Source of the DNA: Candidatus Hermodarchaeota archaeon
Lineage (GTDB): Archaea > Asgardarchaeota > Lokiarchaeia > Sigyniarchaeales > SOKP01
Assembly: GCA_048885535.1 (NCBI GenBank)
Contig: JBHLLO010000026.1
Coordinates: forward strand, 1-40,949
Length of the DNA: 40,949 nucleotides
Reading direction: 5' to 3'
In this document: one piece after another, positions 5,124-39,122 of the stretch
Layout: every line of letters begins with the position of its first letter
Position numbering within the stretch: the first letter of the stretch is position 1
Notes under the pieces: model-generated
Told to the model about the DNA's origin: nothing
What the model saw: only the letters and a program-made list of their open reading frames with translations
Database searches by the model: none
Program-made: the position numbers and the translations under genes

Positions 5124-5483
5124 TTATTTTTCTTGCTTAGTTAAGAGCTTTTCATAAATCTTATCTATTCTTGTCCTAATTTCACTTAATATTTTATTTT
5201 TTTCATTAATTTCTTCTTGCAATTGTTTATGTAATTTTACTTTATTCCTTTTGTTCTCCAGATTAGCAAAAAATGGAAAGAAATTAAGAAGTTTATTAAC
5301 AGCGTTTTCTCCAAATTGTATGATTGCCTTTCTAAGGACTAGGTCTTCCACTTTCCCCTCTTTCACTTCTTTGATCAATGCTTTAAGCTTGAGCAATTCA
5401 TCCCCGTCCAACACAATTGAAACCAAATTATTTCTTAACTCTTTTTTATAATCAATTTTTTCACCATTAATTTCTAAGGTCAT
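5124..5483 (-). CDS. Small coiled-coil protein, last gene of the membrane operon
   Basis: 3-nt gap to the upstream gene; GAGGGA SD; heptad-rich C-terminus. Confidence 0.75.
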   Translation of the reverse strand: MTLEINGEKIDYKKELRNNLVSIVLDGDELLKLKALIKEVKEGKVEDLVLRKAIIQFGENAVNKLLNFFPFFANLENKRNKVKLHKQLQEEINEKNKILSEIRTRIDKIYEKLLTKQEK

Positions 5484-5486
5484 AAT

Positions 5487-8400
5487 TTAACTTCCCTCCT
5501 CTAATTCTAGGTATACTTTTAACTTAACATAAAAGTCCTGTAAACCTTGATATAAACTTTCGCTCTCTTGTTCTAAATCTCCTTTATCTAAATCTATATT
5601 ATTACTCTTTTTCAATAAATCATCTATTTCTTCTTGAGTAAAAGGGAACTGGTCTAAATTTGAGAGTATCGAGACGAACTGATTAACATCTTTATTAGTA
5701 ATAATATAACTTGGTTTATAGTAATCTTTATAGGTATTAGTCAAAAATTTTATTAAGAAGTATTTTGAGAGTTTTAAGCTATTGTAGTAATCTTTTCTTT
5801 TAAGATATTCATGAATGTTAAATAAATCCATAATGATATTACTTCCCAAATTCTTTGCTAAAAAATACCTTATTTTGTGTTCATTTTCAAGATTAATCAT
5901 TCTAATTGCAGGAGAATCTGATTCTTTTAAAACGATATCAACATCAAATCTGCTTAATTGTTGAGAGTCGTAGTAGTCCTTTAAAGCTTGCTCATAATAA
6001 ACCCCTACTGCGTAGGAGGTTCCGACTTGCTCTGAACCTCCTGCAGATCGAGGATGACTTTCAATAAGATATTGATGGTCGATCATAATTTTAAAGACTT
6101 TATCCCGAATTACTCTCATTTTCTTTTTATTTTGGGTATATTCATTTGATATTTTAGGACTTAAAAACTCCATTAAAATCTTCTTTACTTTATCAATAAA
6201 CAAGCCCCCTACTTTATCCACAGTTTTAATACTCTCGAAAAAATTAATGATTTCAGGTATAAATTTAGAATATTCCTCAAAATCCTTTTCAATTAGAGTC
6301 TTTTTTGCCTGTGCGAGGATACGTCTTTCACTATATACTAAATCATATCCTTGTCTTCCCATATGCTCTACGATGTCATGATAATCCATCGGAGGACACT
6401 CTATTAGGTCCTTATTATCTATTACTACTGGAAATGGTTGGTAAATATCAGCTCTTTTCATAAGTGCTTCATTGGTACGCATATTCCTTAAGTAAAGAAT
6501 TTGATATGTTTCTTTCCTTTTTGTATTATAGTATCCAGTACCATGTAACTCATTTAGATTCATCAAATTGGCTAAAATACTTGTATCTCTAACATCCACA
6601 CTTCTAAATGCCATGATGTTATTAATAAAAGTAAACACGTTTGAGTGAAGATAATGAATTTGGTTAGAAAGACAAATAAGACCAAACTTATTCTGGAGTA
6701 GGGGTTCAAAAAATTTATTGATTTTACTGAAGTCTCCAATTAAGTCAAGAAATTTTCCCTCAAAAATAATATCGATATGGGGGATAAACAGATATTTCGG
6801 TACAAATCGTGAATTATTCGAAATATAATGAATGAATTTAGAGAGGATTACAAATATAAAAAGGCATTGGGTTATTTTATCATTGTAATCTGACACATCA
6901 ACTATTATAGTTTGGGGACAAGTAATAAACTCATGAGCCTTAGTTCGCTTATCATCTGGAAGTGCAGTTGCCTGGAAAAATGCTAGATCATCTTGTGAAA
7001 AAACATGAAGGGATGATAAAAGGGACTCACTTTTAGCATCTTTTTCCCAAGGTTGTCTGCTATCAATATCAACTCTAATGTTATTAAGATCGACACTCTG
7101 GTATCGACGGATACTATTTTTAAACAAGTCCATTGCATGCTTATTGACCTTGAATGTTAATCCATAGGCATCAAACATATATTCTAAATAGTGAAGATTA
7201 TTCGGATCGTTTGGAATCGTTTCAGAATGAATAGGATCGAGCGTAAACGCTTTCCCCAGCTTAAAATATAAGATATTGTTTAAATATCTAGTATCTTTAA
7301 AATACGTTAATATTTTTGCCCAATTTCCTGTAGTATCAAAGATGATAGAGGGAATATCTTTTCTGATTAGTTCTGCTACAATTTTCATTGTGAAAACCTC
7401 TCGACTTTGAGGAATACCATTTGTAATTAGAAGTGATCGTAGTTGGTTTAGCGTAAATCCCGCATCCGCTTCAATTGTGAGAGTTTCTGTATTTACTGTA
7501 TTACCAAATATTATCTCACTTTTTAGATAAGTAGGAGTATTGAATTCTGCTGCGACTTGAACCTCGAGCCCCTTTTTAAGCTCATCTGCGATATGGATGA
7601 TAAATGCTAGAGTAAGTCCTTGAAAGTAAACTTCTCTCAGATAAGAACCATTAAGTCGGATATGATGATTCTTTAAAATTTGACAACTTATTCCTGAATA
7701 TAATAATTTATTTGCCAAAGACGCGAGTTTATAATTACTATAATTTGATTTAAAAGATTGAGAAAGAATGACACCTTCCTCATTAAGATGAGAAATAATT
7801 TCAGTAAATGCGTCAGTTGTTAAGTTCCTTACCTGTATTGTATGTGATGTCGAGAGCAAAATTATTGATTTCCATATTCCCGCTCTACGAGCAAGCCAAT
7901 TTTTCTCATTAATCTCTCTAGTTACATAAGTATTTAGCTCATAATTGGTTTTGTCATTCACATATTTAAAACATTCTTTATCAAATTGGGCAAAAGTACG
8001 TGGAGTTGAGATTACAGTATAAATAAAAGGAATTGGTTTGCTTTCAGGGGCATTTATTCCCGAATAAAATTTACTGAAAGAACAATAGGCAGGATCTGTT
8101 ACTTGATTTACATTAAAAATCATAGTTCCTGTCAATTCTTGGTCCTGTGTATGGGAAAAGAGTATATATGGTGTTTTATGAAAATAATAGAATTTAACAT
8201 CCCTAAATGGATTAATGATATTAACATTCTCATAAAAAAAGACATTGTGTTTCGTAATATGGAATAGTACATCTCTCCAATATAAGAAAAAGTTAGCAAC
8301 CAGTATTATTGCATTGATTAATACTATATATAAAAACATAATTCTAAATAAAGCAAAAGATACGTTGAGAAAAACAAATAATCCTAGTGTAAATAAACCT

Positions 8401-9212
8401 TTTATCAAGTAATCCTTTTTATTAGCCTTCAATATTGGTTGAAAATCACCAAGATTCTCAGGGAGTTCAATTTCTTTTTGCATGAAAGTAGAACGAAATG
8501 CACGAATCAATTCTTGTCCTGAGAGAATTTTTACTTTAAAGTGATGGAAATTAGCTCCAAAACTTGATTGAATTCTAGTTCTAAAAGTAAACAAGTCATT
8601 TCTTAGCTGGAGTATTTTTTGTTCACTCAGTATACCTGATATAGAACTGAACACTGAAAAATATATTGTAACTGGAAACACACCAGATCTTTGCTTTCTT
8701 TGGATCACTTGGAATGAGAAGGGAATAGTAGGTTCTACCGCGGAAAGGCTTCTTAAAAATTGAATAATATTTGCATGTACAGTTTCAGGAACTACTTCAA
8801 TCCTGAATAAAGTTAATCCCACGGTAAGAAGATCAACTTTGTTCGTATAGTATATTGTTTCAGAGTCATTACTAATAATCCAAAAGATAATATCTTTAAA
8901 TGGGTTTATTGATTGAAATTGAAATAGTCCTTTTAAGCGAAAAAAAGATTCCCGAAAAATCAAGGAAAAAATAATAATGAGGAGTATTGCAGATCCTAGC
9001 GCAACATAGATATTTTTACTAAGTAAGTACACACATATTGCAAACACAATCCCTATTATTACTAAATACACCGCCTTGAATATTGCAAAAATATTATTTG
9101 TATCACTATAAGAAGGATGAATATCCCAAATCATCTTAAAATCATCATTTTTATCTTGCTTCTCGGAGTCTTGTTCGTTTCCTTTTAGAAAGCTTGAATA
9201 AAGATCAACCAT
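5487..9212 (-). CDS. Membrane-anchored VirB4/HerA/FtsK-superfamily protein with duplicated N-terminal TM module and degenerate Walker motifs
   Basis: LLITNGIPQSRE at the Walker A position followed by IPSIIFDTTGNW, FTLDP, KFGLICLSNQ...INNIMAFR and LRNMRTNEAL, matching HerA/VirB4 motif order; two TM hairpins. Confidence 0.7.
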   Translation of the reverse strand: MVDLYSSFLKGNEQDSEKQDKNDDFKMIWDIHPSYSDTNNIFAIFKAVYLVIIGIVFAICVYLLSKNIYVALGSAILLIIIFSLIFRESFFRLKGLFQFQSINPFKDIIFWIISNDSETIYYTNKVDLLTVGLTLFRIEVVPETVHANIIQFLRSLSAVEPTIPFSFQVIQRKQRSGVFPVTIYFSVFSSISGILSEQKILQLRNDLFTFRTRIQSSFGANFHHFKVKILSGQELIRAFRSTFMQKEIELPENLGDFQPILKANKKDYLIKGLFTLGLFVFLNVSFALFRIMFLYIVLINAIILVANFFLYWRDVLFHITKHNVFFYENVNIINPFRDVKFYYFHKTPYILFSHTQDQELTGTMIFNVNQVTDPAYCSFSKFYSGINAPESKPIPFIYTVISTPRTFAQFDKECFKYVNDKTNYELNTYVTREINEKNWLARRAGIWKSIILLSTSHTIQVRNLTTDAFTEIISHLNEEGVILSQSFKSNYSNYKLASLANKLLYSGISCQILKNHHIRLNGSYLREVYFQGLTLAFIIHIADELKKGLEVQVAAEFNTPTYLKSEIIFGNTVNTETLTIEADAGFTLNQLRSLLITNGIPQSREVFTMKIVAELIRKDIPSIIFDTTGNWAKILTYFKDTRYLNNILYFKLGKAFTLDPIHSETIPNDPNNLHYLEYMFDAYGLTFKVNKHAMDLFKNSIRRYQSVDLNNIRVDIDSRQPWEKDAKSESLLSSLHVFSQDDLAFFQATALPDDKRTKAHEFITCPQTIIVDVSDYNDKITQCLFIFVILSKFIHYISNNSRFVPKYLFIPHIDIIFEGKFLDLIGDFSKINKFFEPLLQNKFGLICLSNQIHYLHSNVFTFINNIMAFRSVDVRDTSILANLMNLNELHGTGYYNTKRKETYQILYLRNMRTNEALMKRADIYQPFPVVIDNKDLIECPPMDYHDIVEHMGRQGYDLVYSERRILAQAKKTLIEKDFEEYSKFIPEIINFFESIKTVDKVGGLFIDKVKKILMEFLSPKISNEYTQNKKKMRVIRDKVFKIMIDHQYLIESHPRSAGGSEQVGTSYAVGVYYEQALKDYYDSQQLSRFDVDIVLKESDSPAIRMINLENEHKIRYFLAKNLGSNIIMDLFNIHEYLKRKDYYNSLKLSKYFLIKFLTNTYKDYYKPSYIITNKDVNQFVSILSNLDQFPFTQEEIDDLLKKSNNIDLDKGDLEQESESLYQGLQDFYVKLKVYLELEEGS

Positions 9213-9213
9213 T

Positions 9214-10038
9214 TTATCTTTCTCCTCTCTGAAAACATTTTAGATATAATAGAAGAGTAATTAAACTACTCCCAAAGAATAATATAAGATAAATGCTGAC
9301 AGCCATTGTCAGATAAGGGAACATTATCATTTCATAGAGAATAGCACTTCCTATTAAGGAGAATACAATTATTATCCCTATCATTATGTACCTTAAACTT
9401 GAAGCTTCTTTCATACTAAGCTTTCCAGAGAAAGAGAGAAATCTTTTTGGCTTAGTAATTGAATTTTTTAATTGTTTCATATATATGGCTTGTTCAAAAG
9501 ATTCCTTATTAAAGTTCTGTTGTAATGCCCTCTGTAAAGAAATTTCTTTTTGGTGTATGTTATGAAGAATTAGTTGCTTTGTTTTACTTGACTTTTTGTC
9601 TTTATTAGTTGCCATGGTCATAAATAGGTTTAAATCAGTATCTAGGGGGATGAAATCTTTTCCTAAAACCTGATAAATATTTGGTATATCAATCTGTTTT
9701 AAATCATAGTATAGCTCGAAAATCTCCTTTATATAATTACTAGGAAGCTCTCCTCTAAGTTTTAAAAATATTAATTCTGATACTTTAAGGCGTTCAATAA
9801 TTGAGGTGTGGAAGATTGGACTTTTTATGAGATTATGAAATACGCTATTAATGAACTCTAAATACCTATGTAACAGCTCATTCTCTTGCTTTTTCCGAGC
9901 ACGAATACCCAAACGAGCACTGATCTCATCAATTGTATTACTCACTAGCACAAATCCAACCACTGCCATCTTTTTATAATTTTGAGTCTGTTTGCATAGA
10001 TGGATTAAATGCTTTAATTTAGAATCAACAATATTCAC
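9214..10038 (-). CDS. Hypothetical protein, helical N-domain + C-terminal TM hairpin
   Basis: GTG start overlaps the upstream stop; two C-terminal hydrophobic helices. Confidence 0.8.
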   Translation of the reverse strand: MNIVDSKLKHLIHLCKQTQNYKKMAVVGFVLVSNTIDEISARLGIRARKKQENELLHRYLEFINSVFHNLIKSPIFHTSIIERLKVSELIFLKLRGELPSNYIKEIFELYYDLKQIDIPNIYQVLGKDFIPLDTDLNLFMTMATNKDKKSSKTKQLILHNIHQKEISLQRALQQNFNKESFEQAIYMKQLKNSITKPKRFLSFSGKLSMKEASSLRYIMIGIIIVFSLIGSAILYEMIMFPYLTMAVSIYLILFFGSSLITLLLYLKCFQRGER

Positions 10039-10745: not shown

Positions 10746-12698
10746 TTATTCTGCTAAATATTCATCTATTTTTGAATGATATGTATCTTCTTCTTGCTCA
10801 AATAAGTCCTCCAAATTTTTCTCTTGCGTATTCCAAATTGGAGTTGTAATGACTCGCTCAGACTTTTGTTGTTCAAGTTTATTTAATAACTTATATTCAG
10901 AGTTTTTACCAAAACATTCATAACCAAACTGTAGCATAAGATCATCTGTAAAATCTTGATAAATAATCTCTAAACTTGCTTCGTCTAAAAGTACCGATTT
11001 TTGATACGTTGGAACTATGTACTGACTTATTAAGTTCTTTTTTTTAATTTTGAAATTATAAAATAGATATCCTATTATTACGCCATAGACAATTAATACC
11101 ATATAGCTTAACCCAATGAACGGAAGGAGCAAGGAAGGTATTTGAGCTAATGCCATAATTATGGCAATTCCCCCAAAAGCACATAGTATAAGAGAAAATT
11201 GTAAAACTTGCTTTTGGAACTTCTTAGTTACTTTATCTAGGTTATCTTCAACTCTCTGTGTCTTGTTATATTCCTGAATAAATTTATGTTTCTTTTCTAA
11301 AAACATCAAAAATGTCTCTAATTGATTTTCTTGGATATAATGAATATTTGAACTCTTTTGATAAGCAAAAGGGATAGATTTTTCTAAGAATTTGACTTCC
11401 TCTGGTGACAGTAAAATTGGATCAACATGTACTATATAATTATTATTGACATCCATGCTGACCATTAAGAAATTTTGGATATATTCCAATAAAGTTCCGT
11501 GTGTGGCAATATCTTGTATGATAAGTTGCTGGACATCGTCTAAATTTGATGTATAGGCGTTAATCATTAGATTATGCTCTATTTGTTTCTGATATTGAAC
11601 AGAATCTTCAGAAACTACAAGAGTACCATAATTAGGAACGAATTTAATTGGAGAAATAAGTAGCATCGGTTGGTCCTGGTTTGAAGACCCCAATTTAAAG
11701 CATACTATATCTATTTCTTGAAACAGATCCTTAATTCTACCTAATGGTATCGAGAAATACCCTTGAAGATCTAATTTTTTTATGATTTTAGCATGATGAT
11801 TATTAGCAGATATATTAACCGATTCTTTATGAACAGAAATATTAGAATTAAAAATTTCAGGCTTACGCAATATCTGCTTAGCAATTTCTTTAAATTGTTT
11901 TTTTTTAGGAATTTTAAAATCTACTTCGTTTTCATCATCTGATTCTACGTCTTCCTCAACAATAGAGGATTCTAGATTCTCCTCATCAAATTTCTCACTC
12001 TTAATTTCACCATTATCTAAAGACTCCTTTTCCTCCAAAAAAACTTGGTAAGAAAATTTACTTTTTTCTTCAACTCCTGATTTATCTTCATTCAGTTCAG
12101 ATTTAGATTTTCTAGAAATAGAATGAGTAAGTCTATTTGGTTTAAATTTATCTTCAAACCAGGGGGACGATTTTTGTTCAGATTCCTCTTTATTGGGAAC
12201 TTTACTTCTTGTTTGTAGACTAAGAAAGGTTTGTTTTGTCTTAAAATCCTCATCTAAATCAGAAATCACATTTGAAATTCCCAAATGTTCTCGTGCTGAA
12301 TTGACGAATTCTTTTGCTGTTTCCATCCCAATTCCCTTAATACGAGCTAATGTATTTGGATTAGCTTTAGCAATTGATTCAATTCTATTATATCCTGCGT
12401 TCCATAATTTACGCTCATGTGATGGACCTACTCCTTTTATTTTAGTCAAATCCTCACAAAAGTTCTCTCCTTTCCTTTGTTCTTTCTCAATTGGCGTAGT
12501 TGAAGATTGCAATTTTATAAGTATTTGAGATAGTTCTTCAAATTTAGATATCCATTCAACATCATTATTTGATACTGACTCCTTTATACCTTTCTTGGAC
12601 AGCTTTATGGCTTGATCTATATCTCCAGCTTCTAATGCTTGCTGAGTCAGGTCATATATATAACTCAAGTCACACTTCTTTTCCATTGTGTTTTGCAT
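10746..12698 (-). CDS. Membrane protein with tandem HhH DNA-binding domain, acidic linker and C-terminal TM hairpin
   Basis: DLTKIKGVG...LARIKGIG HhH2; E/D-rich linker; two TM helices near the C-terminus. Confidence 0.8.
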   Translation of the reverse strand: MQNTMEKKCDLSYIYDLTQQALEAGDIDQAIKLSKKGIKESVSNNDVEWISKFEELSQILIKLQSSTTPIEKEQRKGENFCEDLTKIKGVGPSHERKLWNAGYNRIESIAKANPNTLARIKGIGMETAKEFVNSAREHLGISNVISDLDEDFKTKQTFLSLQTRSKVPNKEESEQKSSPWFEDKFKPNRLTHSISRKSKSELNEDKSGVEEKSKFSYQVFLEEKESLDNGEIKSEKFDEENLESSIVEEDVESDDENEVDFKIPKKKQFKEIAKQILRKPEIFNSNISVHKESVNISANNHHAKIIKKLDLQGYFSIPLGRIKDLFQEIDIVCFKLGSSNQDQPMLLISPIKFVPNYGTLVVSEDSVQYQKQIEHNLMINAYTSNLDDVQQLIIQDIATHGTLLEYIQNFLMVSMDVNNNYIVHVDPILLSPEEVKFLEKSIPFAYQKSSNIHYIQENQLETFLMFLEKKHKFIQEYNKTQRVEDNLDKVTKKFQKQVLQFSLILCAFGGIAIIMALAQIPSLLLPFIGLSYMVLIVYGVIIGYLFYNFKIKKKNLISQYIVPTYQKSVLLDEASLEIIYQDFTDDLMLQFGYECFGKNSEYKLLNKLEQQKSERVITTPIWNTQEKNLEDLFEQEEDTYHSKIDEYLAE

Positions 12699-12722: not shown

Positions 12723-12737
12723 TATATAAAGGAAAAA
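12723..12737 (-). promoter_or_regulatory. T-rich-BRE promoter TTTTTCC-TTTATATA for the membrane operon
   Basis: Strict motif; TATA ends 24 nt before ATG 12698. Confidence 0.7.
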
Positions 12738-12748
12738 TTTTGCGTATA

Positions 12749-12763
12749 TTTTTTCTTTAAATA
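12749..12763 (+). promoter_or_regulatory. T-rich-BRE promoter TTTTTTC-TTTAAATA for the Hel308 operon
   Basis: Strict motif, back-to-back with the copy at 12723. Confidence 0.7.
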
Positions 12764-12793: not shown

Positions 12794-13102
12794 ATGATCA
12801 TGGGTGTTGATGTTAGAAGCGAAAAGAATATGAAGCTTATAACTAGAAAATTTTTCAAATGTAAACATTGTAGTTTGTTAATCGAAATTGAACTAGATAG
12901 TAAGGTTTTAAAACAATTTGAAAAAAAAGATCAGTTTATTATTCCCCATCTTCATATTCATGGGAGCCCCTTACATGGAGTTCTCTGTCATTTTGACTTA
13001 AATGGAGATATACGAAATATAGAAGTGATAAAAAGCATTTCAATTTCAAGAGAATCAAATACGCTTCAGCAAATATTGGATAAATGGTCAAATTATTTTT
13101 AA
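12794..13102 (+). CDS. Small putative Zn-binding protein
   Basis: CKHC plus HLHIHGSPLH; GAGGT SD. Confidence 0.7.
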   Translation: MIMGVDVRSEKNMKLITRKFFKCKHCSLLIEIELDSKVLKQFEKKDQFIIPHLHIHGSPLHGVLCHFDLNGDIRNIEVIKSISISRESNTLQQILDKWSNYF

Positions 13103-27876: not shown

Positions 27877-27897
27877 TATTTGGAAGATTTGTATTAT

Positions 27898-29720: not shown

Positions 29721-29762
29721 TAATTAGTATTTAAAGTAAAAATTTTCCTATACTTTTTTCAA

Positions 29763-29776
29763 TTTTCCTTTAAATA
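29763..29776 (+). promoter_or_regulatory. T-rich-BRE promoter TTTTCC-TTTAAATA
   Basis: Strict motif; 20 nt before ATG 29797. Confidence 0.7.
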
Positions 29777-30732: not shown

Positions 30733-30747
30733 TTTTTTCTTTATAAA
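30733..30747 (+). promoter_or_regulatory. T-rich-BRE promoter TTTTTTC-TTTATAAA for radA
   Basis: Strict motif upstream of radA. Confidence 0.65.
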
Positions 30748-30789: not shown

Positions 30790-32040
30790 TTGAATGGAAA
30801 AATAGCTGATTTAAATCTTGTTAAAGGAATTAATGCTCGTCAGATCAAACTCCTCCAAGAAAACGGGATTAGCACTGCTGAAGCTTTAGCTATGTCTCCT
30901 CACAATTTTGTATCCGAAATTGATGGATTAGGAGATAAAACTGCGAAGAAGCTTATTTGGAATGCTCGAAACGCTTTAGGCATGACTGAATTTACCACTG
31001 CCGAAGAAATAGATGAGGATACCCAGTATATCAATACGGGATCATCCGAACTCAATCGAATCATGGGAGGTGGACTTCCCACAGGTAAACTCACTGAAGT
31101 GTTTGGACCATTTAAGTCAGGGAAGACCAATTTTGCTCACACAGTTGCAGTAACTGTTCAATTACCAGAAAAACAAGGTGGTCTTAATGGAGCTGTAGCT
31201 TATGTAGATTCCGAGAATACATTTTCAAAAGAAAAGATCAAGAGGATCGCACAGAGATTTGGGCTTGATCCTAAAAAAGTGTTATCTAGAATTCATCATG
31301 CAAGAATATATAGTTCCGATCACCAACAACAAATGATTGCAAAGGCAGAAGCTTTATGCAAAACTCGTGGAGTTAAATTGATTGTAATTGATAGTCTGAT
31401 GGCCCTTTTGCGAAATGAATATATCGGGATAGGGATGTTGGCAAGACGGCAAAATGTATTAAATAATATGATCCACGCACTGTCTCGAACTGCTGAGACC
31501 TATAATTCTGCCATTTTAGTTACTAATCAAGTTGCAACCAAAATGATGGGTATGTTCTCAGCTGAAGATGCAATTGGAGGGAATATTATTGCCCACGGAT
31601 GTCATATACGGATGATGTTCAAGACAAAAGGATTCTCTTCTAACACATCCCTCAAGAGAAGAGCAGTAATTGTAGATGCCCCAGATCTGCCACCTGAAGA
31701 GTGTGAGTTCTACATTACATCAGTTGGGATTGCTGATAATGAACAAACTGATAAGGTTGAAATGAAGCAAAAGGAATTTGATATTGAAACTTTATATGAG
31801 GAATCCAATAATGAGAAAGGAAGAGAATCACCTAACGATAAAAGTGAAAATAATGTTGATTTAACAAACATAAAAGGTATTGGAAAGGGTATTGCTGAAA
31901 ATCTAAAAAGTCATGGAATTTTAACAATAACTCAATTGATAGAGTCTGATCCTACTGAATTATCATCTAGGATAAGTGGCGTTTCGATTAAAAAAATAGA
32001 GGAATGGCAAGCCAGCGCACGAGCAATAAGTAAAACCTAA
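30790..32040 (+). CDS. radA: RadA/Rad51-family recombinase paralogue with extra C-terminal HhH domain
   Basis: N-terminal HhH, FTTA polymerisation motif, GPFKSGKT, DSENTF, VIDSL, TNQV, GGNIIAH, DAPDLP; tail DLTNIKGIG. Confidence 0.92.
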   Translation: MNGKIADLNLVKGINARQIKLLQENGISTAEALAMSPHNFVSEIDGLGDKTAKKLIWNARNALGMTEFTTAEEIDEDTQYINTGSSELNRIMGGGLPTGKLTEVFGPFKSGKTNFAHTVAVTVQLPEKQGGLNGAVAYVDSENTFSKEKIKRIAQRFGLDPKKVLSRIHHARIYSSDHQQQMIAKAEALCKTRGVKLIVIDSLMALLRNEYIGIGMLARRQNVLNNMIHALSRTAETYNSAILVTNQVATKMMGMFSAEDAIGGNIIAHGCHIRMMFKTKGFSSNTSLKRRAVIVDAPDLPPEECEFYITSVGIADNEQTDKVEMKQKEFDIETLYEESNNEKGRESPNDKSENNVDLTNIKGIGKGIAENLKSHGILTITQLIESDPTELSSRISGVSIKKIEEWQASARAISKT

Positions 32041-32863: not shown

Positions 32864-33877
32864 TTAGTCTTTAATTTTAATTTTGAAATGATTTTTTTTC
32901 CGGTTAATTACTATACCCACAACAATAACCCCCATAAAACTTCCTATTCCAATAACAGTTAAGAATCCCCACTCAAGTGGAACCCAAAAATAGTGTTCAA
33001 CTGAGGTTTGGTTGCTATCAGGAGGAGGATCACAAATCTTTCCATCATCTATGATAGCATATGCGACACTCATCCATGGCACCTCAAAATAAAGTTCAAT
33101 GTCAATGGTATACATACCTGCTACCGCTGTTCCAAATGTAAATATATTCACATCGGCGATTCCAGCTAAAGAATTATTGGCATATATTTGAAATTCTCTA
33201 TAGGAGGGATCTGAAATATTAAAAAATATATCCCCACGATTACTCAATAGGATAGAAATTGAAGAAACTCTCCCAATATAGAACTTGTATCTTTGTTCAG
33301 TTAGGAATGAAATATCATGTTGAATAAAGTATCCATTTGAGAAGCATGTAACTTCATAAAAGATAATCCTACCATGTTCCTCCATTGGAATCTTATCATA
33401 AAGACAAATGATTCCATTATTTCTTATAGTTATTTTTATATTGAGGTTGACTTCAGTTTCCACTTTAAATTGAAAGGAGTAATTCCCTGATATGGCCGTT
33501 CCAAATGGAGTGCTAATTTCTCCACTACCTTGGGATATAGTGGCATAAAAAATTTGGAATTCGCGATCTATAGAGTCCCATAATGTTATATTCATTGTAC
33601 AACTATGAGGAGTAACTACTTGTAGTATAATAGAATGCATGTAAGCTTTCGGTAAGTTGTAAACTAATATATATGTATTTATGCTTTTGGTAAAAGTGAA
33701 TACTTTGGAAATATATTCATAACCATTAATACTCAGCTTATCGGTGGAAATATCTGGTTTTGATTGTGTTGTTACATTTGAAGAACTAACAAATTGGTTC
33801 TTACTTGAGGAACTCATAAGTAGAAGTCCACTAATCAAAAATAAAATTAAAGCAATATAAGATTTTTTAATAGCCAT
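32864..33877 (-). CDS. Secreted, C-terminally anchored beta-rich protein with two internal repeats
   Basis: Signal peptide; REFQIF...PFGTAISGNY and REFQIY...TFGTAVAGMY; C-terminal TM helix with basic tail. Confidence 0.8.
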   Translation of the reverse strand: MAIKKSYIALILFLISGLLLMSSSSKNQFVSSSNVTTQSKPDISTDKLSINGYEYISKVFTFTKSINTYILVYNLPKAYMHSIILQVVTPHSCTMNITLWDSIDREFQIFYATISQGSGEISTPFGTAISGNYSFQFKVETEVNLNIKITIRNNGIICLYDKIPMEEHGRIIFYEVTCFSNGYFIQHDISFLTEQRYKFYIGRVSSISILLSNRGDIFFNISDPSYREFQIYANNSLAGIADVNIFTFGTAVAGMYTIDIELYFEVPWMSVAYAIIDDGKICDPPPDSNQTSVEHYFWVPLEWGFLTVIGIGSFMGVIVVGIVINRKKNHFKIKIKD

Positions 33878-34184
33878 ACACCTTTAGTTCTTTAAATTCT
33901 GACTTCAATTCTTTTATTATAGCGCATCTATCAGAATCAATACAACTAAAACATGGCTGATCTGTCCAAAAATATGCTGGCTGATGAGGAAGCTCTATAA
34001 TTAAAATAGGTAACTTATTTCTAGGACAATCAAGAGCAGAATTATTTATCTTACCTCTCCTTGGTAGAGCATAAGAAGTCTCACATATTTCACATTTAAC
34101 TAATCGTTTATAATTCGAAGTTTTATACATTAAAAGCGAGCATTGACACTGTGGACATATCCCGATCTCATCCAATCTTCTCAT
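33867..34184 (-). CDS. Stand-alone topoisomerase-I-type Zn-ribbon protein
   Basis: IGICPQC...VKCEIC..SYALP..G...CP, CFSC...C; GTGGTGA SD. Confidence 0.7.
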   Translation of the reverse strand: MRRLDEIGICPQCQCSLLMYKTSNYKRLVKCEICETSYALPRRGKINNSALDCPRNKLPILIIELPHQPAYFWTDQPCFSCIDSDRCAIIKELKSEFKELKVYGY

Positions 34185-34229: not shown

Positions 34230-34244
34230 TATATAAAGAAAAAA
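34230..34244 (-). promoter_or_regulatory. T-rich-BRE promoter TTTTTTC-TTTATATA
   Basis: Strict motif upstream of ATG 34184. Confidence 0.65.
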
Positions 34245-34453: not shown

Positions 34454-34678
34454 ATGGTTATATTTGATTATTTTGATGGGTTTTTAGCAGGTATAGATTT
34501 TTTAATCGCTTTAGGATCAATAATTGGTTTATTAGGAGTTATTGTTGGATTTATCTTTTTTATGTGTGGTAGCAACCGAATGCGAACTCGAATGTTAGGA
34601 GTTATTATTGTGTCTTTAATATTGCTTGCTATATGTGGTACACAAACAGGACTCAGATATTTTAGTATTTATCGCTAA
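34454..34678 (+). CDS. 74-aa two-TM hairpin protein, possibly VirB2/TrbC/CedA1-type pilin
   Basis: Gly-rich helix, short basic loop NRMRTR, second hydrophobic helix; pilin identity is inferred from size and pattern only. Confidence 0.65.
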   Translation: MVIFDYFDGFLAGIDFLIALGSIIGLLGVIVGFIFFMCGSNRMRTRMLGVIIVSLILLAICGTQTGLRYFSIYR

Positions 34679-34709: not shown

Positions 34710-35075
34710 TCAATGATATCCTGGCGGCTGATTAATTCCTAATTGGAATCCAAACAAAACAAATACTTGTCCAGTAAGGAAATATCCTGCCCATAAAAGT
34801 ACTATGCTGAATATCATAGCTTTAAAGTAAATCTTTCGAGTGACAAAAATTAAGAGAATTAAGAATCCAAGTATTACCCAACCAGCTAAAATGCATACTT
34901 CGCCTAATTTAGTAAAAATAACATAGAAAATGGAACCGATTTGATATTGTAGATTCATACCAAAAAATGGAACCCAGACTGCGATAAAAGCTAAAATTCC
35001 AAAAAAGAAAATTGTAAAACCTCTTGATCTTCTCTTTTTCTCTCCATAAAATAGAAAAGGATCTTTTTTAACCAA
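34710..35075 (-). CDS. Small 3-TM membrane protein
   Basis: GGAGAG SD before TTG; basic N-terminus followed by hydrophobic helices. Confidence 0.75.
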   Translation of the reverse strand: MVKKDPFLFYGEKKRRSRGFTIFFFGILAFIAVWVPFFGMNLQYQIGSIFYVIFTKLGEVCILAGWVILGFLILLIFVTRKIYFKAMIFSIVLLWAGYFLTGQVFVLFGFQLGINQPPGYH

Positions 35076-35117: not shown

Positions 35118-35132
35118 TATTTAAAGGAAAAA
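35118..35132 (-). promoter_or_regulatory. T-rich-BRE promoter TTTTTCC-TTTAAATA
   Basis: Strict motif upstream of 35075. Confidence 0.65.
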
Positions 35133-35143
35133 CCTCAAGACTA

Positions 35144-35158
35144 TTTTTTGTTTAAATA
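35144..35158 (+). promoter_or_regulatory. T-rich-BRE promoter variant TTTTTTG-TTTAAATA
   Basis: Back-to-back with the copy at 35118; precedes two small ORFs. Confidence 0.55.
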
Positions 35159-35473: not shown

Positions 35474-36256
35474 TTAGTTAGTAGGTTTATCAATTTCATC
35501 AAGCCATTTCTTAATAGTTATCATACTCTCATCTAGTTCATCTGCGATATCTTGAATTGATCTACCTAATTCATAGTATTGATGCTTTAACCATTGCGGA
35601 TCTCCTTTTTTTTCTTGTATTCTTTCTTCTCTATCTACTTTTTCTTTATGTTTTCGAAAATAACTTAGAATCGTACTAGAAATCAGCCCTACTCCTATAA
35701 TCATGAAAGCAAAACCATAAGATCCAATACTATAAATCCAAGGTAAAAACCTCATGATTAGATCGTTAACATATATTCCAACAGGTATGAGAATAATACC
35801 TATGATTATTAAAATGATATTTGCAAGAATTTGATCAATACGTAAATCGTCTTGAGGATTAGGATGGTGTCGCTTCAGTCTCCTCGTTATATCAAGATAA
35901 GAGGCAACTATAAACAGTATTAGTATGATTATAGGTATAATAGCGAATATTATACTATTAGGTAGAGTTAATAAAAATATAATTGGTATGGCTACTAAAA
36001 AGACAACTATACTCCATCTTAATATAAAGTCTCCTATTAATCCATATCTTTTTACAATATAAATACCTAATAGGCTGATAAGAATAATTATAGTTCCAAT
36101 GCCATAAATGCCAAAAACAATGATAAGAAATAATGTGTTATATGATGTTATTAGTAAAATTACTAAATCTATCCCAGCTATCATGAGAAATATTCCAAAT
36201 ACAATTGAAATATACCAACCGAGTTTGAGACCATATTCATATAAATCTTCACTCAT
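35474..36256 (-). CDS. 6-TM membrane protein with C-terminal HTH
   Basis: WLKHQYYELGRSIQDIADEL...TIKKWL HTH pattern; canonical promoter CAGAAATA-TTTATATT at about 36303-36318. Confidence 0.8.
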   Translation of the reverse strand: MSEDLYEYGLKLGWYISIVFGIFLMIAGIDLVILLITSYNTLFLIIVFGIYGIGTIIILISLLGIYIVKRYGLIGDFILRWSIVVFLVAIPIIFLLTLPNSIIFAIIPIIILILFIVASYLDITRRLKRHHPNPQDDLRIDQILANIILIIIGIILIPVGIYVNDLIMRFLPWIYSIGSYGFAFMIIGVGLISSTILSYFRKHKEKVDREERIQEKKGDPQWLKHQYYELGRSIQDIADELDESMITIKKWLDEIDKPTN

Positions 36257-36369: not shown

Positions 36370-36390
36370 GAAGTATAAAAAATCAAACCT

Positions 36391-37485
36391 ATGGGAGTAA
36401 AGTTAAAAGATATTATAATTCGGAATAATATAAAGGTTTCCGAATTAGCAGGAAGTATCATCGCTATTGATGCTCCGAATATCATAATGAGTCTATTTAA
36501 TTTCACGCGGAAAAACCCAGACGGAAGAAATGCAGGACTTCTTATGGATAAAACTCAGCGTCCTATATCTCATTTATACGGGTTACTCTATCGAATTAAC
36601 TTCCTTTATAGCAAGCTTATATTCCCGATATTTTGTTTCGATGGAAAAGATTCTGAATTAAAGCGGAAAATTCCTAATGATCAACTTAAGGATTTTCTTT
36701 TCATGCAGAAGTGGTATCGATCAACTATAGAATCAGGAGAAGTAGAGTTTGCTAAAGCTATTGCAGCTAATCGGGAATATCAATGGCAGACCATTATTAT
36801 GGAGTCGAAAGAATTATTGAATGCACTAGGAGTTCCGTATATTAATTCCCCTGCCTCAGCAGAATCTCAATGTGCTCAATTAGTTAAGGACCAGATTGTT
36901 CATTTTTCTAATTCTCAAGATTTTGATTCCTTGTTATTTGGATGTCCTCACTTGCTACAAAACCTCTCTAAAACATTGCGAAGAAAAATTCAGGGTAAGT
37001 GGATCTATCAAAGATTAACTCCTGTAAGAATTGATCTTGGTTTTAACTTAAAAAGTCTTGATATAAATCAATTTCAATTAGTAGATATGGCTATCTTGAT
37101 TGGATGTGATTATTTCCCTGGTATCAAAGGAATTGGTCCAAAAAAGGCACTAAATTTAATAAAGAAACATATTGGTCTAGAAGAAGTCATTTCCCAAGAA
37201 AAGGGTAAGTTTAATTTTGAAAACGTTACTCCTGAGTTAATGACTCGCGTAAGAAGAATTTTCTTACTTCCAGATGTATTTCAAGGTTATTCAGGAATAT
37301 CGTGGAACATGCCAAACGAATCTCTGGTCTATTCTTTCTTATGTGAAGCCCATTATTTAAATAGGGAACGAGTTCAAACTAATTTAAGGCGCTTAATTCA
37401 AAGCTATGAAAAGTGTAGGGCATATTTTATTAACCAAGACAGAATATCACCAAAATTACAGATGACTTTGGATCACTTTAGATAA
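36391..37485 (+). CDS. fen: FEN1/XPG-family flap endonuclease paralogue with PIP box
   Basis: MGVKL, IAIDA, SHLYG, FDGK, SQDFDSLLFG, GCDY.PGIKGIGPKKA, C-terminal QMTLDHF. Confidence 0.9.
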   Translation: MGVKLKDIIIRNNIKVSELAGSIIAIDAPNIIMSLFNFTRKNPDGRNAGLLMDKTQRPISHLYGLLYRINFLYSKLIFPIFCFDGKDSELKRKIPNDQLKDFLFMQKWYRSTIESGEVEFAKAIAANREYQWQTIIMESKELLNALGVPYINSPASAESQCAQLVKDQIVHFSNSQDFDSLLFGCPHLLQNLSKTLRRKIQGKWIYQRLTPVRIDLGFNLKSLDINQFQLVDMAILIGCDYFPGIKGIGPKKALNLIKKHIGLEEVISQEKGKFNFENVTPELMTRVRRIFLLPDVFQGYSGISWNMPNESLVYSFLCEAHYLNRERVQTNLRRLIQSYEKCRAYFINQDRISPKLQMTLDHFR

Positions 37486-37499
37486 TTTTTCTTTATAAA
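37486..37499 (+). promoter_or_regulatory. T-rich-BRE promoter TTTTTC-TTTATAAA
   Basis: Strict motif upstream of the 37554-RPA gene pair. Confidence 0.6.
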
Positions 37500-37553: not shown

Positions 37554-38183
37554 ATGACAGATACCTCTAAAAGTAAGGTATTGATGGTAACAAATATAGT
37601 TAAGAATAGGGGTATAATGGCAAGTGTATTAGAAAGCGCATTCATAAATTTTAGTTCAAAATCGGCTACTCTGAATTACATATTTCGAAATGTAGGTTTT
37701 ACAGATTCTCACGGTAATATAATCGTTTTTCCTGATTCTCTCATTAGAAAGGTATGCCGAGAGGTAAAAATCACAGGGGAAGTAGCAGATGGGATCATTA
37801 ATGAGTTTCTATTAAACACTCTATGCTTTAAAAGACTTCTGAATTGTAATACATTCACATGGAAGAATGATCTTTCAAAATTAAAGCGAAAGTTGAGGAT
37901 TTATTTACATAAAGCTTATTATATTGCTCCAGTTTTCAATTACAGGCGAGCGAGAATCAATAGTGAAATACTGATTAGCTTGATGCAAAAAAAGTTTTAT
38001 TTTCCACGATTTACCACTCAACTTGCCTTGGTAATATTTGTGACTGATGCAAATAATAAAAATAAGTTATTTGATACCCCTCTTCTTCAAAAGAATCTTC
38101 GAGCATTTTGTGATTGTTCTGCATTTGCATTTCATCGAGCTAGAAATAAACTAAGAATAAATAATCAGGGACACATTTTTTAA
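37554..38183 (+). CDS. Basic protein with C-terminal TFB-like cyclin fold/HTH
   Basis: QLALVIFV...PLLQKNLRAFCDCSAFAFHRARNKL resembles a TFB repeat (AAaLY...tQkeia..a.vs..tir). Confidence 0.6.
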   Translation: MTDTSKSKVLMVTNIVKNRGIMASVLESAFINFSSKSATLNYIFRNVGFTDSHGNIIVFPDSLIRKVCREVKITGEVADGIINEFLLNTLCFKRLLNCNTFTWKNDLSKLKRKLRIYLHKAYYIAPVFNYRRARINSEILISLMQKKFYFPRFTTQLALVIFVTDANNKNKLFDTPLLQKNLRAFCDCSAFAFHRARNKLRINNQGHIF

Positions 38184-38192
38184 TGATAAACT

Positions 38193-39122
38193 ATGAATTC
38201 CAAAGCTGAAGAGATATATCAAAGGTTATTAGATTCAGGAATTTCTGAAGAAGAGTTGGAACATAAAATTCAGAAAAAAGCACACGAATATTCTGGATTC
38301 ATGTCTAAACAAGGAATATTGTTTCTTATAGCTAAGGAATTTGGAATTGAATTTAATGAACCTGATACTGATTCTTCAATTTATGAAGAAATTGAGAATG
38401 GAATTGATTATGACGAATTTACCATTCCAATAGAAAAGGTGAGAGATGGAATGGTAAACATTGTTCTGTTAGCTAAAATCTTAAAACTATCCCCGATCCG
38501 GCAATTTATTCGAAAAGATGGTTCCCAAGGGGTTGTAAGTTCACTTATTGTTGGAGATAAATCAGGATTAATTAAAGTGGTTATTTGGAATGAAAAGGCA
38601 AATGCTATCAGGAGTAAATTTTTCAAAGAAGGGGAAATTATTCGTATTCTTGGTGATTATTCAAAAACCAACAAAGAAGGTGAGATTGAGGTCCATATTA
38701 GCAAAAGAGGAAAGATTATCCTAGCTCCTATAGATATTGACTCTATTACTAAACAAAACTTAGAGAAAATCAAACCTATGGATATAAAATCAGGTAAAAA
38801 ATTTTCCCAGAATCAGTTTATGATTAATGTATTGATTTCTAAGTATTCGTTTATTAAGAGAATACAAGGGCAAGTTTACATTGAAGAATTTAAAGAAATT
38901 ACTAAAAAAAATGGCGAAAAGACCTTTTTATTAAAATTCATTCTGCAAGATGATTCTGGTTATGTACGAGTAAACATTTGGGGCATGACTGCAGCAGAGA
39001 CTCTTAAGATCATTGAAGATGGAATACACATTAGAATAATAAATGTTATAGTTAAAAAAAATGACTTCACAAATGAAAAAGAGTTAGTCTTTACTAAAGC
39101 TTCTTCAATTGAAGTTATTTAG
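38193..39122 (+). CDS. RPA/SSB-like ssDNA-binding protein (helical N-domain + two OB folds)
   Basis: FIRKDG..G.V.SL.VGD.SG.IKVVIW and KKNGE.TF...LQDDSG.VRV.IWG. Confidence 0.85.
   Translation: MNSKAEEIYQRLLDSGISEEELEHKIQKKAHEYSGFMSKQGILFLIAKEFGIEFNEPDTDSSIYEEIENGIDYDEFTIPIEKVRDGMVNIVLLAKILKLSPIRQFIRKDGSQGVVSSLIVGDKSGLIKVVIWNEKANAIRSKFFKEGEIIRILGDYSKTNKEGEIEVHISKRGKIILAPIDIDSITKQNLEKIKPMDIKSGKKFSQNQFMINVLISKYSFIKRIQGQVYIEEFKEITKKNGEKTFLLKFILQDDSGYVRVNIWGMTAAETLKIIEDGIHIRIINVIVKKNDFTNEKELVFTKASSIEVI

Follow-up and report, generated by a model that had tools for sequence, protein, structure and literature searches.

What does a set of recombination genes do when it is kept, lineage after lineage, beside genes for membrane and surface proteins? 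The question is raised by contig JBHLLO010000026.1 of assembly GCA_048885535.1 (Candidatus Hermodarchaeota archaeon), a stretch of 40,949 nt that was analysed over its whole length and is called the window below. Asgard archaea are the closest known relatives of eukaryotes, and the origin of a dedicated recombination toolkit and of sex is an open question. A preliminary description, made from the letters of the segment 5124–39122, had proposed a system for DNA transfer or competence combined with recombination. The genes very probably form a real, co-regulated module. The leading reading is that of a conserved Asgard module which couples a membrane and surface complex to a dedicated homologous recombination set; that the function is DNA exchange or uptake coupled to recombination is put forward tentatively, as possible rather than probable. 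New here are a HerA-fold protein family lacking Walker motifs, a promoter motif nearly confined to one contig, a divergent TFB-like protein, a core of genes linked across families and a clade of module RadA proteins.

In what follows G-numbers designate genomes, C-numbers contigs and f-numbers other Asgard families. The genome of the window is G000 (3.09 Mb in 112 contigs, GC content 0.30, completeness 91.6%, contamination 1.9%) and the window is its entire contig C26. Thirty-nine main open reading frames (ORFs) were called in the window and all of them were scanned against Pfam.

Conservation of the cluster and its recombination enzymes

The cluster consists of about thirty neighbouring genes that are preserved together in several Asgard lineages. 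It runs from a promoter motif at position 3957 to the contig end at 40949 and exceeds the span of the preliminary description, whose named gene classes were recovered at or near the same places by Pfam and NCBIfam scans, hydropathy and a structure model. Five of the genes form a tightly packed membrane operon on the minus strand (12698 to 5124) coding for proteins of 650, 235, 274, 1241 and 119 amino acids (aa). The 1241-aa protein, called HerA-like below for its fold, occurs in 29 of 41 relatives; within the genus, leaving out G000, 20 of 24 genomes have it.

Ten related loci were fetched and all 39 window proteins were compared with them. The gene order from the HerA-like gene to RadA is the same in six loci (three contigs of G008, C32 of G017, G016 and G012), and the G010 locus matches the window to the limit of its contig. 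G016 and C12 of G008 additionally hold the zinc-ribbon operon, the genes of the 74-aa and 121-aa proteins and FEN1, while the genes for RPA, the roadblock-like protein and the GTPase are additionally present in G016 alone. The 408-aa GNAT-like gene lies on the opposite side of the HerA-like gene in other genomes. Sequence identity between genus loci is 63–98% for Hel308 and 69–82% between the window RadA and its orthologues. The HerA-like protein ranges from 32 to 93% between genus loci (32–58% between genomes) and the surface protein from 35 to 58% between genomes. Judged by these identities, the enzymes change far more slowly than the membrane and surface parts.

Two or three diverged copies of the region occur in some metagenome-assembled genomes (MAGs), namely G008 (C20, C12, C49) and G017 (C32, C68), where the HerA-like proteins are 75–93% identical within one MAG and closer than between MAGs. 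In G008 the similarity between copies continues for more than 46–60 kb without an edge. These multi-copy MAGs are larger than their kin, have a contamination of 8–9%, and such contig pairs show equal coverage. This would be better explained by co-binned relatives or by a large duplication than by an element with ends. C12 and C49 of G008 and C32 of G017 have a shortened or broken ORF for the module RadA (291, 192 and 266 aa; 192–304 residues in tblastn segments), which an intein, a frameshift or the locus edge could explain. The flanks of the G016 locus map to other contigs of G000, an observation that does not decide on mobility.

A profile search of 301 genomes of the phylum identified the 1241-aa family in 70, among them 54 of the 68 genomes of the window's own family and three of seven in f2; six other families gave scattered shorter matches. 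The locus of G038 (f2) has 13 module genes within 56 kb. They code for Hel308, the RadB-like protein, the RadA paralogue, FEN1-like and Hef-like enzymes, the GTPase, the roadblock-like and TFB-like proteins, the 102-aa and 105-aa zinc proteins, two GNAT-like proteins and a HerA-like protein of 1234 aa. The latter is 100% identical to a public protein named Ca. Prometheoarchaeum syntrophicum, so that the question can be tested in a cultured Asgard archaeon. In f23, where close relatives of G078 and G087 bear the names Jordarchaeaceae and Freyrarchaeum, G078 has the GTPase, roadblock-like, FEN1-like, RadB-like, Hel308 and RadA paralogue genes in 18 kb. Both genomes have an operon for a surface protein of ~885 aa, a transmembrane (TM) protein of 150 aa, another of 282–294 aa that matches the middle of the Loki-type HerA-like protein, and a soluble HerA-like protein of 512–520 aa. 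In G078 the HerA-like pair is directly followed by a gene for an Imm5-like immunity protein (PF21805, E 3e-44; locus L042, 12251–12766).

Further loci in f16 and f19 show the same association with the HerA-like gene split in two. G083 (f16) carries the genes for Hel308, the RadB-like protein, the RadA paralogue, a membrane protein of the HExxH type, FEN1-like and Hef-like enzymes together with the split pair; in G151 (f16) the pair adjoins the Hef-like helicase gene, and in G088 (f19) it occurs with Hel308. The HerA-like gene of G044 (f10) adjoins that of a 939-aa homologue of the surface protein. In f25 only a homologue of the N-terminal part was found, without module neighbours. The HerA-like gene is beside TM-protein genes in the G038, f23, f16 and f19 loci, and a gene for a large surface protein is adjacent in f23, f16 and f10. 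The proposed co-occurrence of the gene set is thus borne out: within the genus its synteny is kept, and four further families share a core that includes the HerA-like protein, Hel308, the RadA paralogue, the RadB-like protein, FEN1-like and Hef-like enzymes, and the small GTPase with the roadblock-like protein.

The module RadA proteins are distinct from the canonical ones. G016, G038 and G078 have two high-scoring RadA genes each and a third, lower-scoring one in the module, while the sole RadA of G083 at the threshold used sits on the module contig. In a quick IQ-TREE phylogeny of 20 rows, in which long branches were flagged, the six module RadAs form one clade (6/6, SH-aLRT 95) inside RadA and outside the RadB-like rows.

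Copies elsewhere in the genome were searched by phmmer with the 39 window proteins against all genome ORFs, followed by NCBIfam scoring. The preliminary description had left it possible that the window holds the only housekeeping copies; this does not hold for RadA, FEN1, Hef and RPA. Two higher-scoring RadA genes, a FEN1, a Hef with nuclease and longer RPAs are found elsewhere, Hel308 being the exception. The window RadA scores 321 bits with NF003301 (cut-off 259) and 282 bits with TIGR02236 (cut-off 361), and the canonical RadAs on C74 and C6 reach 459 and 447 bits, as compared to 321 for the window copy. It has the RadA hallmarks, which are Walker A and B and the FxxA polymerisation motif (read here as GPFKSGKT, LIVIDS and FTTA), an N-terminal helix-hairpin-helix (HhH) domain and an additional C-terminal one (residues 357–411). 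The match of the RadB-like ATPase is weak (33 bits).

FEN1 enzymes have acidic active-site residues and a C-terminal PIP box. The window FEN1-like protein scores 267 bits with TIGR03674 (cut-off 352) and the canonical copy on C8 421 bits, above the cut-off. In both the window copy and that of G016 the SE.E pair has Ser in place of one Glu, and the C-terminus of the window copy reads QMTLDHFR, a degenerate PIP-like sequence, versus QLTLDSFF in the canonical protein. Its nearest solved relatives are archaeal FEN1 proteins (E 1e-54), nearer than EXO1 or GEN1. The Hef-like helicase (NF010337, 545 bits, cut-off 610) covers only profile positions 5–552 of 781 and so lacks the nuclease; a full-length Hef is encoded on C8 (872 bits, positions 2–780, with an additional Xpf model match). 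FANCM is the second-best solved relative of the window helicase (E 2.5e-65). RPA has two copies of ~570 aa elsewhere (C22, C63) versus 309 aa in the window, and four DUF87 genes and one NurA gene were also found outside it. The divergent RadA, FEN1 and RPA of the window are extra copies and mostly not the housekeeping ones. For Hel308 (NF002654, 403 bits, cut-off 887; domain 4, PF21280, present) the assembly contains no better match than that of the window (317 bits, the next 146 bits). At 851 aa it is longer than the NCBIfam profiles of Hel308 type (674–739 positions) and contains a Cys-rich unmatched stretch at residues ~505–690.

Several Asgard lineages accordingly keep a second RadA-type recombinase, and some a second flap nuclease, linked to Hel308 and a FANCM-like helicase. 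This second RadA is further linked physically to a small GTPase and to membrane and surface proteins, and in the Loki-type genus of the window the cluster adds its own promoter element and a private TFB-like factor.

Promoter element and TFB-like protein

Archaeal promoters carry a purine-rich B recognition element (BRE), read by TFB, 5′ of the TATA box. The window motif TTTTTTCTTTAAATA is built as five to six T followed by C (T5-6-C) directly 5′ of a TATA box, with T5-6-C at the BRE position. At two mismatches or fewer it has 15 matches in the window versus 3.6 expected, and none of 100 shuffles reached 15, which substantiates the motif-bearing transcription units noticed in the preliminary description. 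Genome-wide there are 40 matches at one mismatch or fewer. C26 has nine of these and four of the five exact ones, while it accounts for 1.3% of the bases. Seven of the nine sit 21–49 nt ahead of an ORF start on the same strand; elsewhere, 5 of 31 matches have any ORF start within 200 nt and 2 of 31 within 60 nt.

The T5-6-C part is what distinguishes these promoters. Upstream regions with a TTTA[AT]ATA box outside C26 (266 cases) have no bias in the preceding 7 nt, and on C26 nine of 12 such boxes are preceded by T5-6 and then C. The three exceptions belong to the flanking amidase gene and to the inserted TIR and TrmO genes (see below). A position weight matrix (PWM) trained on the nine C26 sites and scanned over 2,796 upstream regions gave 22 regions at 12 bits or more, 12 of them on C26, of which nine are circular because the matrix was trained on C26 sites. 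The three C26 matches outside the training set precede RadA, the operon of the 209-aa protein and RPA, and the 408-aa gene. Looser variants lie ahead of the Hef operon, the HExxH/RadB operon and the 74-aa gene; none was found ahead of the TFB-like gene. Three inverted pairs stand back to back, 26–34 nt apart (12723–12763, 29728–29776 and 35118–35158). Neither the minus-strand motif at 29728 nor the plus-strand one at 35144 is followed by an ORF of at least 50 aa. In eight genus loci the motif was found at one mismatch or fewer ahead of the orthologous HhH operon, Hel308, surface protein, RadA, RPA, zinc-ribbon operon and others.

The 417-aa TFB-like protein probably consists of a zinc ribbon, two cyclin-like repeats and a C-terminal extension. 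Family thresholds are not reached (PF08271, 19 bits with a cut-off of 29; PF00382 unreached). A profile of seven orthologues matches the TFIIB core of solved structures (E 0.0075–0.018), the ten best family-bearing feature neighbours in the ESM Atlas are all of TFIIB type, and the stored Atlas model has a TM-score of 0.40–0.62 to TFIIB/Brf clusters; a TFB-like fold is likely. Elsewhere in the genome, canonical TFB genes with two repeats number at least seven (C22, C30, C48, C2, C29, C25, C3), a large family for one archaeon. Since this private and very divergent TFB adjoins promoters with a private BRE-like element, the TFB-like factor may be the protein that reads T5-6-C.

Membrane proteins, possible function and alternatives

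The 1241-aa protein has four hydrophobic segments within its first 305 residues (hydropathy), a HerA/VirB4-fold domain at residues ~552–958 and a winged-helix-like C-terminal part, recognised from weak Pfam matches in relatives and from alignment. No Pfam, NCBIfam, PADLOC or PHROG match was obtained for it. A search found 40 full-length relatives, every one of them a protein without a name or called "hypothetical", and the names Promethearchaeota, Promethearchaeia and Lokiarchaeota occur among the public homologues. Residues 331–1241 were modelled by AlphaFold2 with these 40 relatives as the alignment (mean pLDDT, predicted local distance difference test, 81). Foldseek placed TrwK/VirB4 of R388 first (E 1e-11) and HerA next. 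Alignment by VIA gave Z scores of 24.7 for DndH-C, 24.6 for the VirB4 C-terminal domain, 24.1 for HerA and 23.0 for TrwB (model residues ~222–628; 318–350 aligned residues, root-mean-square deviation (rmsd) 3.9–4.6). Alignments to full-length TrwK include the N-terminal domain as well, yet with an rmsd of ~19. Both methods assign the core to the ASCE P-loop ATPase fold of the FtsK-HerA superfamily. The label VirB4/HerA-like given in the preliminary description is correct at the fold level, because DndH-C, VirB4, HerA and TrwB have tied scores (Z 24–25 for the fold), and fails for the ATPase signatures, there being neither Walker A nor Walker B.

The sequence relationships point to HerA. A core-domain profile run over 1.84 billion representatives matched 2,257 proteins at E ≤ 0.001, of which the best 150 were examined and 146 were new. 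G4xGK[ST] is present only in the four lowest-ranked of the 146. Three of these four were scanned (P0180, P0181 and P0186; the Pfam scan covered 10 of the 150 best matches) and carry the DUF87 "HerA central domain". The window protein itself was matched by PF01935 (DUF87) neither in the Pfam scan nor in a PF01935 search of the genome. As the core profile nevertheless reaches DUF87 proteins with intact Walker A (E ~1e-24), the window protein is regarded as a derived relative of HerA and not as a member of the family model. The 1241-aa family thus appears to be an old HerA-derived lineage without a canonical ATPase site. A complex prediction for its residues 1–560 with the 274-aa protein scored 0.00 and 0.00 with controls absent and is evidence neither way.

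The 650-aa protein that opens the membrane operon consists of a TPR-like N-terminus, an HhH domain (PF14520, E 7e-12, residues 81–139), an acidic linker, a conserved alpha/beta domain, two TM helices and a conserved tail (model pLDDT 63). The HhH domain is related to the N-terminal domain of RadA/Rad51 (31–35% identity over ~62 residues) and to the HhH domain of POLQ/Hel308. No clear structural match was found for the alpha/beta domain at residues 300–463 (best Z 8.9). The two surface proteins of 776 and 337 aa combine an N-terminal hydrophobic segment with a C-terminal TM anchor, as read from hydropathy, and six small TM proteins (of 274, 235, 115, 74, 121 and 260 aa) were likewise recognised by hydropathy only. 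For the 74-aa two-TM ORF, phmmer against solved chains found nothing relevant; the 235-aa polytopic protein had no match in a PDB profile search and no named Atlas neighbour. The blank for a channel like VirB6 or CedA decides nothing, because parts of Ced and Ted are mutually unrecognisable by sequence as far as the accessible text of PMC9905601 describes them. The G038 orthologues of the roadblock-like protein and the GTPase match MAPKK1_Int weakly and Arf above the cut-off, respectively.

The proposed mechanism would start with the cluster-encoded divergent TFB, which would read T5-6-C at the place of the BRE and switch on about a dozen transcription units together. The surface proteins would contact a partner cell or external DNA, and the membrane complex would hold DNA at the membrane through the HhH domain, which resembles the N-terminal domain of RadA, and the winged helix of the HerA-like protein. 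The motor would be a superfamily 2 (SF2) helicase, Hel308 or the Hef-like protein, and not the HerA-like protein, comparable to ComFA in bacterial competence. Going by the established roles of the families, integration of the DNA by recombination would then fall to the RPA-like protein, the FEN1-like nuclease and the RadA paralogue, the latter partnered by the RadB-like protein. DNA exchange or uptake is placed ahead of internal repair because fast-evolving surface proteins share operons with this complex in distant lineages.

A number of observations weigh against this proposal. The Walker A consensus is GxxxxGK[ST] and that of Walker B hhhhDE. Neither a GK[ST] Walker A nor an hhhhDE Walker B is present in any of 17 aligned Loki-type members, where the strand-loop-helix at the Walker A place reads LLIxNGxxxxRE and the Walker B strand TIIIDLS. 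Walker A is also missing in the four split distant forms, whose Walker B strand reads hhhhDD, and in 142 of the 146 new representatives among the best. A HerA-fold protein lacking these motifs is therefore unlikely to be a DNA pump. It has no Pfam match to VirB4/TrbE, and its profile link is to HerA (DUF87) over VirB4. Both this protein and the HhH protein lack an N-terminal signal-like segment, so that their soluble domains are most simply cytoplasmic, which would put the HhH domain inside the cell. No Pfam match to VirB4/TrbE, ComEC, pilin or relaxase was obtained among the 39 ORFs, and the 74-aa and 235-aa proteins have no sequence or Atlas link to parts of type IV secretion systems (T4SS) or Ced. 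It is the absent motor motifs and the probable cytoplasmic place of the DNA-binding domains that keep our estimate of DNA exchange at the tentative level. Other points concern the module as a unit. The 40 kb fetched from C68 of G017 contain the first eight genes and no others of the set. Of the 39 window ORFs, eight are unmatched in the ten related loci, namely those of the 96-aa, 110-aa and 260-aa TM proteins, the TIR, TrmO and transglutaminase-like proteins, and the 209-aa and 135-aa proteins, the last two being motif-bearing. The long branches of the small RadA tree and the circular part of the PWM count belong here too. A separately regulated programme is consistent with the cluster-specific motif and the divergent cluster-encoded TFB in the genus. 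In G038, the motif was not found at one mismatch or fewer, and a de novo search with 59 other upstream regions as background showed only a loose pattern of T-run and TATA box, not clearly over background.

The absent motor motifs and the probably cytoplasmic DNA-binding domains would also fit if the module worked on the cell's own DNA at the membrane, in recombinational repair, replication restart or chromosome pairing and segregation, without any DNA crossing the membrane. DNA or repair foci would then be anchored there by the HerA-like and HhH proteins, at a place determined by the Arf-type GTPase and its roadblock partner. We rate this as unlikely, though deserving serious attention. Besides the probably cytoplasmic soluble domains and the winged-helix-like end of a protein without motor motifs, it draws on the GTPase and roadblock pair being within the conserved core and on Hel308, which seems to be the sole copy of the genome and is conserved at 63–98% between genus loci, as would be a housekeeping enzyme. 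The nearest active profile relatives are HerA/DUF87 proteins, which act in end resection according to the available part of PMC9905601. Internal repair leaves unexplained the large surface and polytopic proteins encoded in or next to the same operons in distant lineages, as well as their evolution at a rate much above that of the enzymes, as for parts that face partners or viruses; and canonical RadA, FEN1, Hef, HerA and NurA are already encoded elsewhere. A mere neighbourhood of housekeeping repair genes with membrane genes, the motif being an ordinary strong promoter, is barely credible. Archaeal replication and repair genes do often cluster and the motif does contain an ordinary TATA box. 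T5-6-C, however, was unseen before TATA boxes elsewhere and the high-scoring sites are concentrated on C26; the linkage of HerA-like, Hel308, RadA-paralogue, RadB-like and FEN1-like genes persists in at least four further families, and that of the GTPase and roadblock pair in three of four. Canonical copies also exist elsewhere in the genome. Chance is excluded on the grounds of the cross-family linkage and the contig-specific motif.

A domesticated or mobile element, such as a conjugative element or a virus relic that brought along a transcription factor with promoters, genes for replication and recombination and a protein of the HerA/FtsK type, would account for the private promoter type, for a TFIIB-like factor whose nearest Atlas neighbours by features are mostly viral TFIIB-like clusters, for the second copies of replication and recombination genes, for the two or three diverged copies in some MAGs and for flanks that differ between G000 and G016. 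It is highly unlikely all the same. The Pfam scan of the 39 ORFs found no integrase, transposase, capsid or relaxase family, ten family-less ORFs gave no strong and two weak matches against PHROGs, and there is no tRNA or Rfam family in a window of host-like GC and tetranucleotide composition (r 0.994). Most of the good genomes have a single copy, the 1241-aa protein family occurs in 54 of the 68 genomes of the window's own family, the core of the cluster is kept across Asgard families with the RadA paralogue as one cross-family clade, and the similarity between the G008 copies runs 46–60 kb and more past any cluster edge. An anti-virus defence island around the HerA-family protein and the helicases is about as hard to credit. 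The structural neighbours include DndH-C and the HerA partners of Sir2 and DUF4297 systems (Z 20–25), Hel308 has a generic match to Hachiman HamB (142 bits), and a TIR-domain gene is inserted in the cluster. The known defence HerAs, however, are active ATPases with Walker motifs. PADLOC, run on 10 of the 39 proteins, found no match for the HerA-like, HhH, 274-aa, DUF1922 and FEN1-like proteins; its helicase-core matches are far below the Hel308 and Hef family scores, and its TIR matches are those of the inserted gene, which is unmatched in the ten related loci and carries no motif. RadA, RPA, FEN1, TFB and GTPase genes make no defence pattern.

The closest known kind of system is that of HerA-family-linked recombination clusters under a TFB paralogue. 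Ced and Ted import DNA in Sulfolobales and Thermoproteales and are compared here together with the TFB3 damage regulon. According to PMC9905601, HerA and Rad50 genes are found at Ted loci, Ced, Ups and HerA come under joint control by TFB3, and no sequence similarity is recognisable between the components of Ced and those of Ted. CedB and TedB are described as ATPases. The likeness to Ced and Ted consists in machinery in the membrane that includes a protein of the HerA/VirB4 superfamily besides small two-TM proteins and polytopic ones (PMC9905601, in part), and in the genomic or regulatory coupling to homologous recombination genes (HerA, Rad50) and the control by a TFB paralogue (PMC9905601 and PMC6101591, both in part). 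Against this, the HerA-fold protein of the window lost Walker A and B whereas CedB and TedB are ATPases, sequence and Atlas searches of the window recognised neither a VirB2-like pilin nor a VirB6-like channel, and the recombination set is far larger and made of dedicated paralogues. The Ced-analogous programme suggested in the preliminary description therefore stands for the HerA/VirB4 fold, the TFB paralogue and the linkage to recombination, and falls short for the Ced/T4SS pilin and channel homologues and the Walker motifs. TFB3 is not known to have the DNA-binding core, in contrast to the TFB paralogue of the window, which probably retains both cyclin-like repeats and may read its own BRE-like element. 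As with the archaeal operon of HerA, NurA, Mre11 and Rad50 for end resection, a HerA-family protein is tied to recombination genes and DUF87 proteins are its nearest active sequence relatives; here, NurA, Mre11 and Rad50 are missing from the Pfam scan of the 39 ORFs, and the protein is membrane-anchored, about twice as long and without ATPase motifs.

Bacterial competence regulons bring together ComEA, ComEC, ComFA, SsbB, DprA and RecA under ComK or sigma-X. The module resembles them in having an HhH membrane protein, a polytopic protein, a possible SF2 motor, a single-stranded DNA-binding protein, a recombinase and a dedicated transcription factor. Homology of the parts is limited to the HhH motif and to the RecA-fold and OB-fold classes, no ComEC or other competence Pfam family was found in the 39 ORFs, and the HhH domain is here predicted inside the cell. 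With no defining part of Ced/Ted or competence systems recognised, the module is not classed as a member of either. Matsuo et al. 2025 (PMC12722695) have published a second RadA clade of Asgard archaea; the accessible part of the paper treats the recombinase alone, without its gene neighbourhood. In the genomes compared here a third, divergent RadA forms one clade across four families. HELQ/Hel308 contacts RPA, RAD51 and RAD51 paralogues (BCDX2) according to the accessible text of PMC13623763. The joint occurrence of Hel308, the RadA paralogue, the RadB-like protein, the RPA-like protein and a nuclease-less Hef recalls the eukaryotic network of HELQ, RAD51 paralogues and FANCM, a comparison drawn at the level of protein classes. 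The FEN1-like protein is nearer to archaeal FEN1 than to EXO1 or GEN1. Neither the cluster nor the motif nor the HerA-like family was found described in the open full-text literature, supplements and subscription papers lying outside that search.

An ancestral Asgard programme of contact-dependent DNA exchange or cell fusion, with its own recombinase paralogue, a RAD51-paralogue-like partner, helicases of the HELQ and FANCM types, a flap nuclease, a protein binding single-stranded DNA, an Arf-type switch and a private TFB with a BRE-like element, could have been a prokaryotic forerunner of the meiosis-like recombination toolkit of eukaryotes, which is likewise under separate regulation; we regard this as quite unlikely. 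If the coupled module is as proposed, it would provide an example from nature in which a TFB paralogue occurs with a BRE variant that is a candidate for its cognate element, and also a long-lived HerA-family pseudo-ATPase.

Gene inventory and minor observations

The features of the window are given in Table 1.

Table 1. Features of the window (contig C26) in order of position; lengths are in amino acids.
Position	Strand	Feature	Remark
2–2143	-	penicillin-amidase-family gene	left flank
2251–3156	-	amino-acid-kinase-family gene	left flank
3957–3971	+	promoter motif TTTTTTCTTTAAATA	exact match, 47 nt ahead of the 361-aa ORF
4019–5104	+	361-aa protein, no family	motif-bearing; 87% identity in G010; weak relative in G038 module
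5124–5483	-	119-aa protein, no family	last gene of membrane operon
5487–9212	-	1241-aa membrane protein	HerA/VirB4 fold without Walker A/B
9214–10038	-	274-aa protein	C-terminal TM helices
10035–10742	-	235-aa polytopic membrane protein	
10746–12698	-	650-aa HhH protein	opens membrane operon
12723–12737	-	motif	back-to-back pair with next, gap between membrane and Hel308 operons
12749–12763	+	motif	back-to-back pair with previous
12794–13102	+	102-aa Cys/His-rich protein	opens Hel308 operon; relative in G038 module
13084–15639	+	Hel308-type helicase, 851 aa	
15640–15957	+	105-aa protein	kept in genus
16016–16030	+	motif variant	two mismatches
16072–16302	+	76-aa protein	conserved
16901–16915	+	weaker motif variant	12.9 bits
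to 18190	+	408-aa protein	weak GNAT match
18222–18722	-	166-aa zinc-ribbon protein (DUF1922)	operon with Hef-like helicase
18719–20860	-	Hef/FANCM-type helicase, 713 aa	without XPF nuclease domain
20880–21458	-	192-aa protein, no family	kept in genus; precedes Hef-like gene
21915–24245	-	776-aa surface-anchored protein	prenyltransferase-type alpha/alpha toroid domain
24294–24308		motif	exact; 776-aa gene
24378–25631	-	417-aa divergent TFB/TFIIB-like protein	no upstream motif
26046–27737	+	563-aa TIR protein	PF13676, E 3e-24; weak TFIIB-type zinc ribbon
27880–28671	+	polytopic HExxH membrane protein	weak M50 match; operon start
28668–29015	+	115-aa TM protein	HExxH/RadB-like operon
29016–29720	+	RadB/KaiC-like ATPase	with Walker A; same operon as HExxH protein
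29728–29742	-	motif	pair with next
29762–29776	+	motif	pair with previous
29797–30180	+	127-aa Cys-rich protein	
30275–30718	+	TrmO-like gene	
30733–30747	+	motif variant	
30790–32040	+	RadA paralogue, 416 aa	
32101–32829	+	transglutaminase-like gene	
32864–33877	-	337-aa surface-anchored protein	
33867–34184	-	105-aa zinc-ribbon protein	62–69% identity in genus; operon with 337-aa protein
34230–34244		motif	operon of 105-aa and 337-aa proteins
34454–34678	+	74-aa two-TM protein	"pilin-like hairpin" of the preliminary description
34710–35075	-	121-aa TM protein	
35118–35132	-	motif	back-to-back with next
35144–35158	+	motif	back-to-back with previous
35474–36256	-	260-aa polytopic membrane protein	unmatched in ten related loci
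36391–37485	+	FEN1-like nuclease	second copy
37485–37499	+	weaker motif variant	12.9 bits
37554–38183	+	209-aa protein	
38193–39122	+	short RPA-like OB-fold protein, 309 aa	
39139–39153	+	motif	
39175–39582	+	135-aa protein	
39872–39886	+	motif	exact
39936–40469	+	roadblock-like protein	
40456–40947	+	small Arf/Ras-type GTPase	truncated by contig end

The GC content along the window is even (0.28–0.37). The tetranucleotide profile of C26 correlates with the mean of the other 55 contigs of at least 20 kb at r 0.994 (range from 0.981 to a median of 0.998), the fifth lowest value. A foreign or mis-binned contig was considered and rejected, since both measures are inside the range of the genome. 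No tRNA and no Rfam family was found in the window.

Three genes within the cluster differ from their neighbours. The TIR gene, unmatched in the ten related loci and without the motif, resembles an insert of the defence type; seven paralogues of it are encoded elsewhere in the genome. The TrmO-like and transglutaminase-like genes, which flank the RadA paralogue, are non-syntenic in all related loci, and the TrmO-like gene is without the motif. The amidase and kinase genes of the left flank also have no motif and are common to G010 only (84–91% identity). Paralogues of the small 127-aa zinc, DUF1922-like and 76-aa proteins are encoded on other contigs of the genome (C102 4396–4782, C85 3959–4180 and 8701–8922, C33 16492–16746), and the one on C102 has the motif 21 nt upstream.

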